Source: Verrucomicrobiota bacterium
GTDB lineage: Bacteria; Verrucomicrobiota; Verrucomicrobiia; Opitutales; Seribacteraceae
DNA length: 34,402 nt
Assembly: GCA_027622665.1 (NCBI GenBank)
Contig: JAQBYT010000041.1
Span: 1-34,402 of the forward strand
Reading direction: 5' to 3'
Under the pieces are notes generated by a model that made no database searches, was not told the origin of the DNA, and worked only from the letters and a program-made list of their open reading frames with translations. Below are positions 16,832 through 29,131 of the stretch, piece after piece. Numbering within the stretch: position 1 is the first letter of the stretch; every line of letters begins with the position of its first letter. The translations under genes and the position numbers were made by a program.

Positions 16832-17470
16832 TCAGAGCCTCTTGATTCGTATCTTGCGAAAGGAGACGGGGTCGTTATGACCCGCAAAGCCAAAATGGCC
16901 TTCCTTTCGATTCATACCGGGATGTGGTTTCCCCCCCATGAAGTCTTTCACCTTGCTCAAGTCGGCATCGAGAATTTCCGTACCGTTAAGGATCACCTTG
17001 ATAGTCGAACCCTTGACCGAGACCTCCTGCTCGTTCCACTCTCCGGTGGGTCGTTGAAAACCTCGCTTGGCGCCAACCATGCCGTAAGCGGAACCATGAA
17101 CTTGCCGCGGATCCAACTTGGCTTTCCTCACCTTCTCGTAATTGTCGTCAAGCACTTGGAGTTCGCACATGCCGCCATAAGCGGTGTTTCCTTTGCCGGG
17201 ATAACGAAGGGCAAGACCATTGTTGCCTCCGGGAGGAATCTTGAATTCAAAACGCACCACAAAGTCGGCATAGACCTCCTTCGTGAATATGGTACCACCC
17301 TTCCCTTTTTTGCATTGGATGGCTCCATCAACAATTTGGTAATTGTCCAAAGGACCTGACCAACCCGCGAAGTCCTTTCCGTTGAAGATGCTCTTGAAGC
17401 CTTTCTCCTCCGATTCCGACATTACCGGAAGAACGCTTGCTAAAAGAATCGACAGTACAATTTTGGTCAT
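16832..17470 (-). CDS. DUF1080 (3-keto-glycoside hydrolase/hydratase family) exported protein
   Basis: Signal peptide, FNGKDFAGW, GNNGL, ELQVLDD, GEWN, GHFGFAGH, FRKIRIKRL. Confidence 0.9.
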   Translation of the reverse strand: MTKIVLSILLASVLPVMSESEEKGFKSIFNGKDFAGWSGPLDNYQIVDGAIQCKKGKGGTIFTKEVYADFVVRFEFKIPPGGNNGLALRYPGKGNTAYGGMCELQVLDDNYEKVRKAKLDPRQVHGSAYGMVGAKRGFQRPTGEWNEQEVSVKGSTIKVILNGTEILDADLSKVKDFMGGKPHPGMNRKEGHFGFAGHNDPVSFRKIRIKRL

Positions 17471-17481
17471 TCGATGAATCC

Positions 17482-18186
17482 TTAGTCTGAAGTCGGAGCG
17501 GATAACTCCTTTAAATATACATTCCTCCAGCGAATTTCCCCGCCGTGGGTTTGAAGCTCAATAGGACCACGCTTAGGCAGGGGGATCGCTCGGTTAAAGT
17601 AGTTTTCGAGCCGGGCATTATTCACCACAAGCTTGTCGTTCAGATGAATCGTCACCTTTTCTCCTTTCATGACGATGCGGAAACTGTTCCATTCACCAAA
17701 AGGTTTATCAGCAAGAACGAGTGGATTCTTCCCCTCGGGCTTTTTATTGTTCCAAAGACCGCCGGAACCCTTGTCGGCTCCAATATTCCACTTCCCGCCT
17801 TCCTTGGTGGAATCCCAAATTTGCACCTGAGGAACCCCCCGCAAGTAGATGCCACTGTCCGCTTTGGCCACGGTCTTGTAGTCCAAGTGAAATTCAAAAT
17901 CTCCGTAATTTTTTTCGGTCGAGAGATACAGTCCCTTTCCATCGTTCACGAGCACCCCGTCCTCAACCGTCCAGTGCTTGTGAATGTCCACAATGCTGGC
18001 CTTTTTCTTTGCAGCGAACTTTTCAGGCGAAAGCGCCATCCACTTGGCGGGATCCTCCGTATTCAATCCCCACCAACCATCCAAGTTCTTCCCGTTGAAA
18101 AGGGCAACGAAACCAGCGGGAGGTTTTGGCTTGGCGGCATGAGCTACAACTACTGCGAAAAGAGAAAGGAAGACTAAGAGTTTCAT
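17482..18186 (-). CDS. DUF1080 (3-keto-glycoside hydrolase/hydratase family) exported protein
   Basis: ATG at 18186 (MKLLVFLSLF signal); LFNGKNLDGW, DSGIYLRG, GSGGLWNN, GEWNSFRI, GPIELQTHG, WRNVYLKEL. Confidence 0.9.
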   Translation of the reverse strand: MKLLVFLSLFAVVVAHAAKPKPPAGFVALFNGKNLDGWWGLNTEDPAKWMALSPEKFAAKKKASIVDIHKHWTVEDGVLVNDGKGLYLSTEKNYGDFEFHLDYKTVAKADSGIYLRGVPQVQIWDSTKEGGKWNIGADKGSGGLWNNKKPEGKNPLVLADKPFGEWNSFRIVMKGEKVTIHLNDKLVVNNARLENYFNRAIPLPKRGPIELQTHGGEIRWRNVYLKELSAPTSD

Positions 18187-18285: not shown

Positions 18286-19314
18286 TTATGCGGCGAACAC
18301 ATAGTCGACACCCTCCCGATGTCCGCGATCTCGGAGAAAAGCGCCGACCTTTTCGCGAGCTCCGCGAGCTCCCACCATAGCGACGATGAATTCTTCCCCC
18401 GGCTCAGGAATATCCTCAATCGATTGTACCATCAAACCAGTCCTTGGGTTGCCCACTTTACGAGGGTCAACATCGTAGAATCCGGAAATGACGGTACCCG
18501 CATTCGACAGAAACTTGACTCGTCTACGAGTAATTCTTCCCGCACCCCAAATCTTTACTTTTGGAAAGTGGCAGTTGTTGTCTTTCAGCCATCGATGCAA
18601 GTATTCGAGCTTCATTTCGTAAAAAGCCTCCACCGAGTAGCGAGGATCAATACGGGAGAGACGATTGTCGTGATCTCGCCAACGAAGCAGGATGGCATCG
18701 AGCTTTTCCATTTTCACTCCACATTCGAGCCAACGCAACCAAAGCTCGTAATCCTCGGGGAATAGACCTGACCGATATGCCCCATAAGTTCCCGCTAGGC
18801 TTTTACGGAAAACGACCGAAGGATGAGCAAAAGGAGATTCTACGAAGCGACGGAGCCTGATGTCCGTGTCCTCAACGAGTGCGTTGATCCATTCGACATA
18901 GGTTTCGTAACCTTTTCGAATCTCTCCATCCTCACTCCAATGCTCGACACGACAGGAAACCAAACCGACTTCCGGGTTGGTATCCAAAAAGTCGCACTGG
19001 AGGGACAGTCGCTTGGGAAGTGAAATGTCGTCGGAATCCATTCGAGCCAAATATGGAGCCCTAGCCTCCGCCAATCCGAGGTTTAGCGCTTCTACGATGC
19101 CCAGCTTGACGGTCGAAAGAACACGAATGCGCCCGTCGAGCTCGGCAAACTCCCGAAGAATCCCAGGGGATGCATCAGTTGAGCCGTCATCCACCACGAG
19201 CAGTTCGAGATTTCTCTCAGTTTGGCCGAGAATGCTTTCAATCGCCACGGACAAAGTTTTCTCGTCGTCACGGACGGGCAGAATCACCGAGATCCGAGGA
19301 ATGGGAGAGGTCAT
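18286..19314 (-). CDS. GT2 glycosyltransferase with C-terminal IWGAG Rossmann-like domain (QTGAL/B3GNTL1-like)
   Basis: SVILPV, VDDGSTD, ARMDSDD (DxD), PEDY; C-terminal IWGAGR, FYDVDPRK, EGVDYVFAA; ATG at 19314 (alternative TTG 19341). Confidence 0.85.
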   Translation of the reverse strand: MTSPIPRISVILPVRDDEKTLSVAIESILGQTERNLELLVVDDGSTDASPGILREFAELDGRIRVLSTVKLGIVEALNLGLAEARAPYLARMDSDDISLPKRLSLQCDFLDTNPEVGLVSCRVEHWSEDGEIRKGYETYVEWINALVEDTDIRLRRFVESPFAHPSVVFRKSLAGTYGAYRSGLFPEDYELWLRWLECGVKMEKLDAILLRWRDHDNRLSRIDPRYSVEAFYEMKLEYLHRWLKDNNCHFPKVKIWGAGRITRRRVKFLSNAGTVISGFYDVDPRKVGNPRTGLMVQSIEDIPEPGEEFIVAMVGARGAREKVGAFLRDRGHREGVDYVFAA

Positions 19315-19355
19315 TACTTCCGGTCCGCAGGAATCGAGCAAGCAGTTGAGGCAAT

Positions 19356-19814
19356 CTAACGAACCTCAATTTGCCTAAGCGCCTCGTAGCAACCAATTGA
19401 GACTGCATTGGCCAAGTTGAGGGAGCGTAGTCCATCTTTAAACTGGGGAATCTTAACCTTTCTACCCGATGCCCAGCTATGGACATCAGAGGTTACTCCG
19501 GTACTTTCGTTGCCGAAGAGGAGACCGTCTCCATCTCGAAACTCCGCATCCCAAATCGAAGTTTCCGCTTTCGTGGTGAAAAGATAAATGCTTTCAGGAC
19601 GCTCATCCGATGCTAGAAACGACTCCCAATCGTCGTGTTCCGAAAGATCCAGGGAACGCCAGTAATCCATGCCCGCGCGCCGGAGGCGGGAATCATCTAT
19701 CTCGAAACCATAGGGCTTGATAAGATGCAAACGGCAGCCCGAATAAGCGCATAGTCGACCGATATTACCAGTATTCTGTGGGATTTCGGGCCGAAGAAGA
19801 ATAAGGTGAATCAC
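19356..19814 (-). CDS. trmL: tRNA (cytidine/uridine-34 2'-O)-methyltransferase, SPOUT family
   Basis: PEIPQNTGNIGRLC, RRAGMDYW, LFGNESTG, RSLNLANAV, YEALRQ. Confidence 0.95.
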   Translation of the reverse strand: MIHLILLRPEIPQNTGNIGRLCAYSGCRLHLIKPYGFEIDDSRLRRAGMDYWRSLDLSEHDDWESFLASDERPESIYLFTTKAETSIWDAEFRDGDGLLFGNESTGVTSDVHSWASGRKVKIPQFKDGLRSLNLANAVSIGCYEALRQIEVR

Positions 19815-20290
19815 CGTCGGTTGTAATGTTTCAAAGCTTGTTCAGTTTCACGTTCGGCAGAACGTTTTTTGAGATCCTCTCGCTTGTCGTGAAGCTTTTT
19901 GCCCGTACAAATTCCAATTTCCAGCTTCACCAAGGAACCCTTGAAATACATTCGCAAAGGGATGATGGACTTTCCTCCCGCCTCCATCTCCACTTTAAGT
20001 CGAACCAGTTCACGCCTGTGCAAAAGCAGTTTGCGCAAACGCAAAGGTTCGTGATTCTCAGAACCGCCGAATTCGTATTCGGCTATGTGGGCGTTAAAGA
20101 GAAATAGCTCATCCTTAACGAATCTGCCGAAAGATTCGGAAATTTGAGCTCGACCCGCCCGCAAAGACTTCACCTCCGTGCCGCGCAAGGATATTCCTGC
20201 CTCGAACTTGTCGCCGATGAAATACTGGTGACGGGCCTTGGCGTTGTTTACCGAAGGAGGTCCACTCGCGTCTTTTTTTCGCTTGGACAC
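19811..20290 (-). CDS. smpB: SsrA-binding protein
   Basis: KARHQYFI, EAGISLRGTEVKSLR, RKLLLHRRE, GKKLHDKRE. Confidence 0.97.
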   Translation of the reverse strand: MSKRKKDASGPPSVNNAKARHQYFIGDKFEAGISLRGTEVKSLRAGRAQISESFGRFVKDELFLFNAHIAEYEFGGSENHEPLRLRKLLLHRRELVRLKVEMEAGGKSIIPLRMYFKGSLVKLEIGICTGKKLHDKREDLKKRSAERETEQALKHYNRR

Positions 20291-20318
20291 GATGGATAGT
20301 CACCTAGTGGTTAAGGCA

Positions 20319-20342
20319 TGGGCGAAAGCATGGAATCGCCCA
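20319..20342. other. Intergenic stem-loop between rpoZ and smpB
   Basis: TGGGCGA-10 nt-TCGCCCA inverted repeat without a U-tract. Confidence 0.4.
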
Positions 20343-20353
20343 ATCCCAGAGGT

Positions 20354-20566
20354 TTAGTTCTCCTCCTCTTCCTCGTACGGTTGGTAAGTTATCTTACCTT
20401 CAATAATCTCTCGAAGAGCGATATCCTCGGGTTCTAACTTCTCAAGTGATTCCACAAGGGCTTTGTTTCCAAACTTAAGTTGCTTCACCCGACGGGACAC
20501 GACGTTGATGAGGGCGTTGGGGTCCGTAATAATCTTATGGGCTGCCTGTAAATAATCGTCTCTCAC
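20354..20566 (-). CDS. rpoZ: RNA polymerase omega subunit
   Basis: 70 aa; LINVVSRRVKQL and DIALREIIEGKI match omega conserved regions. Confidence 0.88.
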   Translation of the reverse strand: MRDDYLQAAHKIITDPNALINVVSRRVKQLKFGNKALVESLEKLEPEDIALREIIEGKITYQPYEEEEEN

Positions 20567-26121: not shown

Positions 26122-27147
26122 ATGAAGAAGATCGGCGTGCTCCGCTTATCTGCCCTTGGGGACGTGGTGCTAGCAGTGCCACTCGTTAACGCCCTCCTTC
26201 GAGCTTACCCGGAGGCTGAAGTCACTTGGGTGACAACTCAACCCACTGTCGACTTAATCGGTCCCATGAAGCGAGTGAAATGGGTGATTGTAAGCAAGCC
26301 GAAAAGTTTTCGCGCATTTTGGGACAATCACAAGGCACTTCGAGGAATGCATTTAGATACCCTCCTGCTTCTTCAGGCTAGCCTTTCCGCCCATTTGGTT
26401 AGCATGCAAATTTCGGCCGAACGCAAAATAGGCTTCGATCGAAGAAGAGGTAAGGACTTTCATCAATTTTTCATCGATGAATCAATTCCTTATGAAAACC
26501 AACATTTCGTTGATGCGTTTTTGGATTTTGCCCGAAAAATTGACGTCTGTATAGATGAAGCTTCATGGCAGGGAGCTTTTTCCAATATGGATTCCAACTG
26601 GGCACGTCGAACTTTACCAGAAGGTACTCCTCGCATCGGTATTTCGACGACCCCGAGCAAAATAGAAAGAAGATGGTCTGAAGATGGCTATGAGGAAGTC
26701 ATCGAGCGTTTACTGTCTAAAAACAGACTGGTTTGCCTCTTGGGAGGTGATGGGGAGGAAGAAGTTTCCTTTAATGCCGAACTCGCTTCTCATTTTTCCG
26801 ATAAAATTTTAAACCTAACTGGGAAGACCAACCTCAGCCAGTTGAGCGCCCTTCTTAAGGAAATTGACCTGCTTGTCGCTCCTGACACCGGCTGTGTCCA
26901 TTTAGCAAGGGCCCTCGGGACTCCCGTGGTAGGTCTATATGCCGTGGCGAACCCTTCTTTGACTGGCCCATATCAAGCACAAGACTATTGCGTGAACAAA
27001 TTTCACGAGGCTGTCCACAAATACCTACCCCTCAAAAAAGGACAAGATTATCACTTGCGGGTTCATCATCCCGATGCAATGACACTAATCAAACCAAAGG
27101 AAGTTACGGAAATGATCGACGAAGCACTTGCGGCCTTTTCCCATTAA
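26122..27147 (+). CDS. GT9 family LPS core (heptosyl)transferase
   Basis: RLSALGDVVLAVP, NLTGKTNL, APDTGCVHLARALGTPVVGLY. Confidence 0.9.
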   Translation: MKKIGVLRLSALGDVVLAVPLVNALLRAYPEAEVTWVTTQPTVDLIGPMKRVKWVIVSKPKSFRAFWDNHKALRGMHLDTLLLLQASLSAHLVSMQISAERKIGFDRRRGKDFHQFFIDESIPYENQHFVDAFLDFARKIDVCIDEASWQGAFSNMDSNWARRTLPEGTPRIGISTTPSKIERRWSEDGYEEVIERLLSKNRLVCLLGGDGEEEVSFNAELASHFSDKILNLTGKTNLSQLSALLKEIDLLVAPDTGCVHLARALGTPVVGLYAVANPSLTGPYQAQDYCVNKFHEAVHKYLPLKKGQDYHLRVHHPDAMTLIKPKEVTEMIDEALAAFSH

Positions 27148-27250
27148 GGAAGCGGTCTGCCCTCGTTGAAAAGAATCCCTCCCATTTCTTGGTTTTATCC
27201 AAAGTTTACACTCAACCAAGTTTTATGTTTAAAGTCGTCTGGCAATGGTG

Positions 27251-29131
27251 ATGGGATTCTTTATCAAAACATGGGGGTACGTATTTTCCCTACTGCCTTT
27301 TTCGTGCTTGGCGATTTTAACACAATTCCTCGCATATGTATTTGTATCAATCCCTAGCTGTCGGAGACGAATACTCTTGTCGAACCTCAAGCATGCATTT
27401 CCTTACTGGAATGATGTTAGAACAAAATCGGTCGCCAAAAAATCGGCGGCCAGAATGTTCGAGATGGGCTTTTTTTCCCTAACCTATCCTTTTCTGTCGA
27501 AAGATAAACTCAGAAGAACGCTGCTGTTCCCAGAGAAAGTCGAGCGAGAGCTTCACGATTTACGCAAGTCGGGTCGTCCTTTGCTAATACTTGTACCCCA
27601 TGTTTGCCTTTTCGAAACCTTGGTCACTTCACCGTATTTCCGCCCCCAGCGAGGCAAGACTCTTGGTGCGATTTATCGTCCGAACAAGAATGCTGAGCTC
27701 GACCTTTGGATCAATCGGGCAAGATTGAAAACCGGAATGAAGACTTTTGCCCGAAAAGAAGGATTGCTTAGGGCGCGCAATCATTTGCGTAAAGGTAATT
27801 GGCTTATCGTTTTATTTGACCAAAATGCGGGAATCAAAGGGGTAAAAGCCACTTTCCTGGATCGACTCTGTTCGATTTCACGCCTGCCCGATCTTTTGGC
27901 CAAGCAACCCGACTTAGCTTGTGTCTATGTCTCGCCCAGAAGGCATTCCTTTTTCCAAGCCAAACTGGAAGTGAAAAACCTAGAGGTTAAGCCTCAGGGG
28001 ACTCACCTCGATGCCCATCGCCTTCTTGAGCAAGAAATAAGAGATTGTCCGGACGGTCTTCCTGAATGGTTGTGGTCCCATGGGAAATGGAAAACAAACG
28101 ACATGCCCCACGAGTTCTTTCATTTGCAAACTAACAAGAAATCTAAAATCGATTTCCCCGACCTGACTCGCAAAACAAAACTTTGGATTAGAATGCCAAA
28201 CTGGTTGGGTGACATAATAATGGCAATCCCCTTGATCCGGTCTGTTCGTTCGAGTCGCCCGGACGCTGAAATCACGCTTCTTTGTCAAAAGCAATATGCT
28301 TCTTTTCTCGAGTCTTTAAGAATAGCAGAACATATTATTCCCCTCCCGGACAAAAGGGGCATTGGTTATTTTGCAAGCTTCCTTGCTTGGCGAAAGCATT
28401 ACCCCGATGCCATGCTGCTGTTCACGAATTCATTTCGAGGTGACCTCGAGGCGTTTATTATCGGAGCAAAGTTGAGATTCGGGATGGTCCGAAAGCATCT
28501 TAGGCCTCTCCTTAACGCCCGTTGGAAAGTTCCGGAAGAAATGACGCAATTTCATCAAACCAGGGTTTGGGAAGGGTTGCTAAGAAACTTTGGCCTCAAA
28601 GAGGAGACCGATCTCTCTGCGTTGCCAAGACTGGAGGGCCCAAAAGGGAAATCAATCGAAAAGATTCGAATCGGGCTCGCCCCAGGCTCGAACAACACCC
28701 CTTCCAAGAGATGGCCCGTGGAAAGCTGGATTGTTATCTGTGAAAATCTTATTTCGGAATCTCAGGGAAAGGAAATTACGCTCGAATTGTTCGGGACAAA
28801 TCAAGACAAAAGCCTTTGCGCGTCAATCAAGCACTCTTTACCTTCTAGTCTTTGCATCGATCATGCGGGCAAGACGTCCTTGGTTGAACTCATGAATCAT
28901 TTTCGTCAACTGGATGTCCTGTTATGCAATGATTCTGGAGCAATGCATCTTGCCAATGCTGCGGGAACCCCCGTCGTTGCGATCTTTGGACCGACTGACC
29001 CATCGATTACTGGACCGATTTATGAATCAACCTCTATTGCGATTCAGAGCAACACAGCTGATCCCATAGAATCAATAGAGCCAAAGACTGTAGTAAAGGA
29101 AGCCCTGCAAGTAATTGGTCTGCAAGTTTGA
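27251..29131 (+). CDS. Fusion of a lipid A late acyltransferase (LpxL/LpxM-like) and a GT9 heptosyltransferase II (WaaF-like)
   Basis: N-half: NLKHAFP, HVCLFE (Hx4E), IYRP, LFDQ, WLWSHGKWK. C-half: RMPNWLGDIIMA, KRWP, NDSGAMHLANAAGTPVVAIFGPT. Start 27245 or 27251. Confidence 0.88.
   Translation: MGFFIKTWGYVFSLLPFSCLAILTQFLAYVFVSIPSCRRRILLSNLKHAFPYWNDVRTKSVAKKSAARMFEMGFFSLTYPFLSKDKLRRTLLFPEKVERELHDLRKSGRPLLILVPHVCLFETLVTSPYFRPQRGKTLGAIYRPNKNAELDLWINRARLKTGMKTFARKEGLLRARNHLRKGNWLIVLFDQNAGIKGVKATFLDRLCSISRLPDLLAKQPDLACVYVSPRRHSFFQAKLEVKNLEVKPQGTHLDAHRLLEQEIRDCPDGLPEWLWSHGKWKTNDMPHEFFHLQTNKKSKIDFPDLTRKTKLWIRMPNWLGDIIMAIPLIRSVRSSRPDAEITLLCQKQYASFLESLRIAEHIIPLPDKRGIGYFASFLAWRKHYPDAMLLFTNSFRGDLEAFIIGAKLRFGMVRKHLRPLLNARWKVPEEMTQFHQTRVWEGLLRNFGLKEETDLSALPRLEGPKGKSIEKIRIGLAPGSNNTPSKRWPVESWIVICENLISESQGKEITLELFGTNQDKSLCASIKHSLPSSLCIDHAGKTSLVELMNHFRQLDVLLCNDSGAMHLANAAGTPVVAIFGPTDPSITGPIYESTSIAIQSNTADPIESIEPKTVVKEALQVIGLQV

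Follow-up and report, generated by a model that had tools for sequence, protein, structure and literature searches.

A stand-alone glycosyltransferase of Verrucomicrobiota as a candidate bacterial counterpart of the queuosine-tRNA galactosyltransferase QTGAL

Does a glycosyltransferase gene located behind rpoZ, smpB and trmL in the genome of a marine member of the Verrucomicrobiota encode a bacterial counterpart of the eukaryotic queuosine-tRNA galactosyltransferase QTGAL (B3GNTL1), and could its product attach a sugar to queuosine at tRNA position 34 (Q34)? This question was raised by a first-pass annotation of a stretch of 34,402 nucleotides (assembly GCA_027622665.1, contig JAQBYT010000041.1, positions 1 to 34,402), here called the window, in which a gene for a family 2 glycosyltransferase (GT2) was noted at 18286-19314. 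Glutamyl-queuosine (gluQ) is the queuosine (Q) derivative known in bacteria and sugar-modified Q is described from vertebrates (PMC10690763); the donor of QTGAL is UDP-galactose (PMC11928779), and the sugar that it adds to Q of tRNA-Tyr is a beta-galactose, linked to the homoallylic hydroxyl (PMC12518689). Our literature search returned neither a bacterial QTGAL nor a bacterial sugar-modified Q; the original QTGAL paper, its supplements and subscription reviews, which lie outside the coverage of this search, may mention homologs. The analysis presented here indicates that the bacterial GT2 family is very probably the prokaryotic ortholog group of eukaryotic QTGAL; the chances that it glycosylates Q34 in tRNA, as analogy would suggest, appear evenly balanced.

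Homology with eukaryotic QTGAL

Eukaryotic seed sequences were obtained by scanning metagenome contigs with a short C-terminal motif, which yielded 52 loci; six contained full-length eukaryote-type open reading frames (ORFs), and the remaining loci were exons or chance matches. A profile of the six ORFs retrieved proteins named QTGAL, QTGAL-like or B3GNTL1 from molluscs, arthropods, an echinoderm and a hemichordate, the names being NCBI and UniRef annotations and the comparison set consisting of non-human eukaryotic proteins. The C-terminal seed motif is not independent evidence, while the named-protein set and the other motifs are. Profile-to-profile alignment (hhalign) of the bacterial and eukaryotic families gave 99.94% and E 7.8e-37 over 320 columns, covering query residues 4-340. 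When residues 205-342 were searched on their own in the ESM Atlas, a queuosine-tRNA galactosyltransferase cluster (71% Eukaryota) came up at rank 4 with a score of 0.92. Thirty-two positions reach 85% conservation or more in each of the two sets, 38 eukaryotic and 90 bacterial sequences, nine of them beyond residue 250; they include W142, N144, P161, P165, G178 and P186-E187-D188, followed in the C-terminal part by W256, G259, R263, D281, D283, K286, L327 and G335. The five colinear motif pairs that the first-pass annotation had named were found in 8-14 of 14 proteins named QTGAL/B3GNTL1: PED, IW[NG]AG and F[CY]DVD..K in all 14, the terminal EG.DY motif in 13, and Y[TV].W.N, searched as a strict pattern, in eight. 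The end-to-end profile match, the C-terminal search and the shared positions thus support the earlier claim of a similarity beyond the generic GT2 core, and sequence comparison indicates full-length homology that includes the C-terminal domain. Both groups share a length of about 340-350 residues, a GT-A domain followed by a Rossmann-like domain, and the motifs DxD, W-x-N, PED, W-x-x-G, DxDxxK and terminal G-x-D. They differ in acceptor-side motifs (ESPxAHPSV in bacteria, GPTVIMPTW in eukaryotes; WGAGRxTR versus WNAGKQGR) and in the loop after DxDxxK, which is shorter by 8-15 residues in bacteria.

Within its own genome the gene is the first match of the six-row QTGAL profile (E 4e-24 versus 9e-13 for the next), and in full-length scoring against the eukaryotic profile the 13 best sequences were all family members (124 family rows, including two duplicates). 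For hard outgroups, 20 of the GT2 loci matched by the QTGAL profile in a 301-genome search were fetched. The eukaryotic C-terminal profile gave no score to any of 28 GT2s from outside the family; the family reached a median of 5 and a maximum of 37.5 bits on it, with a quarter of its members at 0. L270:1498-2583 (-) and L190:1501-2508 (-) scored highest with the eukaryotic profiles, at 60.6 bits for the post-core and 124 bits for the full-length one.

The outgroups in the trees comprised these 20 top-scoring loci and paralogs from the own genome rather than all GT2s. Four of five trees united the bacterial family and eukaryotic QTGAL with support of 98-99, so that the two appear to form one clade to the exclusion of other GT2s; a GT2 phylogeny was among the checks put forward in the first-pass annotation. 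With LG+C20 on the GT-A domain only, the eukaryotes were nested in the family (SH-aLRT 99 in the 55-row tree and in the 90-row tree, which omits two partial ORFs), these mixture-model trees being quick searches without bootstrap. When the full-length family rows were analyzed with the 10 nearest outgroups, both models set the bacterial family and the eukaryotes together apart from the outgroup (support 99 and 98). In the GT-A domain, five columns are shared by the eukaryotes and the family as opposed to the outgroups, and a single column by the eukaryotes and the outgroups. The trees do not fix the position of the eukaryotes within the family, and sisterhood with the subfamily of the window protein is not shown. 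A divergent Bacteroidota subfamily (L232, L233, L236-L264) is marked by WGAG[KR]KGK and P-x-W motifs.

Two-domain structure and a possible reaction

The protein is a GT2 with a GT-A fold, a PF00535 domain (residues 9-173, E 2e-28) and a DxD motif, for which an inverting type is proposed. Its AlphaFold model (pLDDT 96) consists of a GT-A domain, with SpsA as best fold match (1h7l; Z 25.3, root-mean-square deviation (rmsd) 2.6, 217 residues aligned), and a separate Rossmann-like C-terminal domain, where Pfam reports a CoA_binding match (residues 252-323, E 1.2e-4). The motif D93-S-D95-D96, which as in other GT-A enzymes would bind metal and nucleotide sugar, is invariant in the 90 bacterial sequences and also present in the 38 eukaryotic QTGAL-family proteins. 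W142 occurs in 100% of family rows versus 14% of outgroup rows, and N144 in 96% versus 0%. The SpsA, EpsE and TuaG-type enzymes share the GT-A fold and the N-terminal nucleotide-sugar-binding half, but lack the W-x-N signature and a QTGAL-type C-terminal domain; EpsE and TuaG are the nearest curated families, far under their cut-offs (EpsE 98 versus 450 bits). The protein is soluble, its top 19-residue hydropathy being 1.3 with no membrane helix, and values above 1.6 were found in only six of 121 family proteins.

The C-terminal domain carries W256-x-x-G259-x-x-x-R263 and D281-x-D283-x-x-K286, both common to QTGAL, together with a glycine loop and an acidic residue. Folded alone (pLDDT 95.7), it best matches the N-domain of UDP-quinovosamine dehydrogenase (3nkl; Z 10.8, rmsd 2.4, 90 aligned), followed by a sugar C-methyltransferase (3ndi, Z 9.9), WbaP (9.7), a Clostridium protein (9.5) and Rex (8.6). 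The extra domain pointed out in the first-pass annotation is therefore real according to Pfam and the model; its atypicality for lipopolysaccharide (LPS) GT2s was overstated, as the fold type also occurs in glycan-pathway enzymes. Sequence and fold searches of the PDB returned GT-A core matches and general Rossmann folds only, with no solved QTGAL structure among them, which does not by itself exclude a relative. In the bacterial family the median net charge is +7 over the last 130 residues versus -10 over the first 210 (C-terminal charge in the eukaryotic proteins, +3), a basic character that would fit RNA binding but does not prove it.

On this basis the protein may be a cytosolic, metal-dependent, inverting GT-A enzyme that transfers a hexose from a nucleoside-diphosphate sugar, by analogy UDP-galactose, to a hydroxyl of the cyclopentene diol of Q34 in a GUN-anticodon tRNA, probably tRNA-Tyr. 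A galE gene in the genome provides context for the proposed donor. The DxD motif would hold metal and donor, and D188, presumably the catalytic base by analogy to other GT2s, would act as such; the W-x-N helix and the basic C-terminal domain could form the acceptor site, and the latter might help to hold the anticodon arm. The acceptor, the donor and the tRNA species are thus proposals, as is the part given to the C-terminal domain. A beta-linked product is what an inverting GT2 is expected to yield.

Table 1 Location of the glycosyltransferase gene, its domains and motifs, and the genes preceding it in the window
Feature	Position	Strand	Basis
QTGAL/B3GNTL1-like GT2 gene, 342 aa	18286..19314	minus	ORF, ATG to TAA
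GT-A domain, residues ~5-246	18577..19302	minus	AlphaFold model (pLDDT 96), SpsA fold match
DxD motif D93-S-D95-D96, putative metal/nucleotide-sugar site	19027..19038	minus	Conservation
Y139-x-x-W142-x-N144-x-L146 helix	18877..18900	minus	Signature common to QTGAL, rare in nearest other GT2s
P186-E187-D188 motif	18751..18759	minus	Conservation in family and QTGAL proteins
C-terminal Rossmann-like domain, residues ~250-342, basic	18289..18567	minus	Pfam, model, QTGAL-shared motifs
trmL, tRNA position-34 2'-O-methyltransferase	19356..19814	minus	NCBIfam, Pfam
smpB (context)	19811..20290	minus	NCBIfam, Pfam
rpoZ (context)	20354..20566 (stop 20354-20356)	minus	NCBIfam

Queuosine pathway, gene context and family spread

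The host genome has the Q pathway that the proposed function needs. The genes queC, tgt, queA and queH, as well as galE, were found over cut-off; queG was not found over cut-off in this genome, and queH serves in its place. Genes for tRNA-Tyr(GTA), tRNA-His and tRNA-Asn are present, and tRNA-Asp was not found in the assembly (93.5% complete). A Q34-containing tRNA substrate is thus available in the host. Co-occurrence with tgt, a check put forward in the first-pass annotation, was seen for 29 of the 30 carriers in the phylum sample and for 49 of another 50, taken from the 80 GTDB loci described below. The lone tgt-less carrier of the phylum sample retains queA, as do four other tgt-less genomes, so that an assembly gap is a likelier cause than loss of Q.

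Two other types of Q-modifying enzyme were compared. GluQRS (YadB), the known bacterial Q34 hypermodifier, also modifies the cyclopentene diol (PMC10690763), but has an unrelated fold and adds glutamate; a 278-residue open frame in the own genome matches it below cut-off. QTMAN (GTDC1; PF12038, QTMAN_N) is the other Q glycosyltransferase and has bacterial relatives too, but belongs to another family and was not found in the 93.5% complete own genome. Bacterial QTMAN_N genes were observed in 12 of 301 own-phylum genomes (L173-L184, frames of 374-512 aa). The QTGAL-like gene is present in only one of these 12 genomes, the number expected by chance, and QTMAN co-occurrence was discarded as support given the independent distributions. 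Separately, ARAGORN calls a tRNA-Leu with an AAG anticodon at G000 C55 325599-325683, which is unusual in bacteria.

Along the minus strand the order of genes is rpoZ, smpB, trmL and GT2 (Table 1), with trmL and smpB overlapping by 4 nucleotides. The spacing of 14-41 nucleotides behind trmL on the same strand given in the first-pass annotation holds: it is 41 nucleotides from the trmL stop to the ATG and 14 if an alternative in-frame TTG at 19341 is used, the ATG being favored because close homologs also have 342 residues. The TrmL assignment lies below the NCBIfam equivalog cut-offs and above the Pfam SpoU cut-off. Upstream of the cluster, cutA is divergently oriented. LPS-type genes begin at 26122, about 6.8 kb from the GT2 gene, in agreement with the distance of about 7 kb noted earlier. 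At 27245-29131 on the plus strand lies a 628-residue ORF in which a lipid A acyltransferase domain is fused to a GT9 heptosyltransferase domain. Downstream of the GT2 gene lies a tandem pair of 3-keto-disaccharide hydrolase genes (16832-18186, minus strand), which in loci L002 and L079 forms one two-domain ORF. A promoter and terminator scan gave sites no more frequent than in shuffled sequence. In two of four RNA runs, contigs extend over 18652-18941 and over the 3' end of the GT2 gene; none of the contigs from the four runs spans trmL to GT2, and they say nothing on operon structure or expression level.

The gene is single-copy in its own genome, and the closest named homologs of its product are from Opitutae/Opitutales. 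Of 8000 scored candidates, 5800 pass E 0.001, generic GT2s included. Identity is 49-95% for the best 120 homologs, almost all of them full length, and the leading ones from several phyla are about 50% identical at nearly constant length; among representatives at 50% identity, 798 fall below 1e-30, with lengths clustering near 335 residues. A GTDB scan found at least 570 relatives, 80 of which were used further (Verrucomicrobiota, Acidobacteriota, Desulfovibrionaceae, Balneolaceae, Rokubacteria, Bacteroidota and Gammaproteobacteria). Cultured species among the carriers are Puniceicoccus vermicola, Cerasicoccus frondis (L017) and Aureibacter tunicatorum. Carriers were counted, the centre genome included, with a profile built on the region that follows the generic core. 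Full post-core matches occurred in 30 of the 301 own-phylum genomes, 12 of 121 from the Desulfobacterota group (with one further partial match), 10 of 201 genomes from the phylum of a gammaproteobacterial carrier, three of 151 Bacteroidota, five of 61 genomes of a further phylum and, at a looser threshold, 37 of 81 in one Bacteroidota order, where the divergent subfamily described above occurs. A pattern search of IMG/VR detected no viral family member, and no phage record matched with 80% coverage. The distribution of the family is broad but patchy, and the gene is nearly always present in one copy and stands alone.

Gene neighborhoods were surveyed with a simple ORF score across 165 loci (319 slots, 234 neighbor families, 97 independent contexts), annotation being available for most neighbors (150 of 153 in one set, one representative per cluster in another). 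No immediate neighbor was a GT2 (0 of 319), which agrees with the expectation that orthologs lie outside polysaccharide loci; three of 20 outgroup loci had a second GT2 within 1.6-3.4 kb, which in one case had itself prompted the choice of a wider stretch. The first-pass annotation had taken the neighboring trmL as a mark of a candidate tRNA-glycosylation system. This did not hold up, as trmL adjacency is confined to Opitutales kin (five of 80 GTDB loci, one context); a trmL-GT2 operon kept across lineages is not supported, and trmL as functional partner was discarded as evidence. Neighbors in other lineages include msrA, TtuA-like and TtcA-like genes, TsaC, folE2, trpS, rpsT, an MBL-fold hydrolase, located divergently upstream in six of nine Pseudomonadota loci (L221-L225, L227), and anmK. 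Fusions are very rare, with one tetratricopeptide repeat (TPR) fusion among 732 long candidates. At L238:1498-3186 (-), a single 563-residue frame joins AnmK to the last two thirds of the GT2; in four related loci anmK is a separate upstream gene, and the L238 frame is probably a deletion or assembly fault. Fusions as pointers to a partner were set aside. The GT2 behaves as a free-standing housekeeping-type gene; this context argues against a polysaccharide role and does not name the acceptor.

Weighing possible acceptors

Several observations weigh against an orthology with QTGAL or against a Q34 acceptor. In single-sequence BLASTP, identity to named QTGAL proteins is 23-28% over 293-364 columns, and 31 positions are conserved within each group yet different between the groups, many on the likely acceptor side (bacterial/eukaryotic R156/Y, F157/T, S166/T, V167/W, Y189/L, W195/H, W212/Y and G257/N). 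The reciprocal profile search suggested earlier gave a mixed outcome, with the first rank in the own genome and the top 13 full-length scores on one side and the 301-genome search on the other: there, with at most six candidates scored per genome, family members were three of 34 among the matches listed, the others being generic GT2s aligned over positions 5-230. On the GT-A part alone, selected outgroup GT2s average 75 bits versus 67 for the family. One tree (LG+G4, 55 rows with long outgroups) places the eukaryotes among long-branched outgroups, although the same data do not reject a joint clade of family and eukaryotes (approximately unbiased test, p 0.22). The divergent Bacteroidota subfamily is closer than the window protein to QTGAL in its P-x-W and glycine-loop motifs, as are L190 and L270. 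Judged from the model, the C-terminal fold is not RNA-specific, its top matches being glycan-pathway and NAD-binding domains. With tgt near-universal (293 of 301 genomes), its co-occurrence with carriers is consistent with the proposal but does not discriminate. The expected synteny with tRNA-modification genes failed to appear: against an assumed baseline of 0.8-1.5% of genes, the four among 234 neighbor families are no enrichment (P 0.12-0.47). The flanks of 124 loci (1.04 Mb in total) and of 44 loci added later contained no match to tgt, queA, queH, gluQ or QTMAN. Finally, according to PMC12313893, C. elegans has a QTGAL gene and galactosyl-queuosine was not detected on its pre-tRNA-Tyr.

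Part of this evidence would suit a true QTGAL ortholog acting on a cytosolic small molecule or nucleotide-type metabolite, such as free queuine or queuosine salvage products bound by the Rossmann-like domain, with tRNA specificity confined to eukaryotes. We regard this as unlikely, if better placed than the other alternatives. The resemblance of the C-terminal domain to nucleotide(-sugar)-binding domains (3nkl, 3ndi, WbaP, Rex), acceptor-side residues unlike those of QTGAL, a eukaryotic stem that is long in every tree and lineage-level hydrolase and kinase neighbors (the MBL fold of Pseudomonadota, anmK in four Bacteroidota loci) all speak for it, but no metabolic partner recurs across phyla in the 97 contexts, and the basic C-terminal domain retains the W/G/R and DxDxxK residues of QTGAL.

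A different cytosolic macromolecule, be it another modified tRNA or rRNA nucleoside or a protein, is a less probable target. A soluble, stand-alone, single-copy and conserved gene would agree with such a role, as would the TPR fusion and the scattered non-Q RNA-modification neighbors (trmL, TtuA-like, TtcA-like, TsaC, RlmI-like); against this, the sole characterized member of the clade acts on Q34, RNA-modification neighbors are not enriched and fusions amount to one in 732. No better is the prospect that the protein works as an orphan enzyme of the cell envelope, on LPS, capsule or glycolipid or in wall recycling, with no more than a distant kinship to QTGAL: it would have the default role of bacterial GT2s, EpsE and TuaG as nearest curated families, a C-terminal fold also seen in WbaP and PglD-type proteins and a few isolated glycan-related neighbors in about five of 97 contexts (GT28 in L016, an NAD-sugar epimerase in L066, RmlD-like in L160, Wzx-like in L245, and kdtA two genes away in L268), but the gene is not placed among glycosyltransferase, flippase or polymerase genes, its product has no membrane segment, and conservation across phyla with QTGAL-shared signatures is unexpected for a strain-variable glycan enzyme.

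Glycosylation of Q34 by the bacterial QTGAL orthologs leads to a wider proposal, which we hold tentatively and a shade less firmly: sugar modification of Q34 may be a bacterial invention, in which the family in Verrucomicrobiota, Desulfobacterota, Acidobacteriota, Bacteroidota, Pseudomonadota and other phyla adds a hexose and from within which eukaryotic QTGAL was acquired. If true, this would constitute a new class of bacterial tRNA modification and provide a clue to the origin of an animal enzyme needed for normal decoding. A bacterial QTGAL would also offer a small soluble enzyme for structural work on the family and, should its acceptor differ, the family would still display the ancestral chemistry behind QTGAL.

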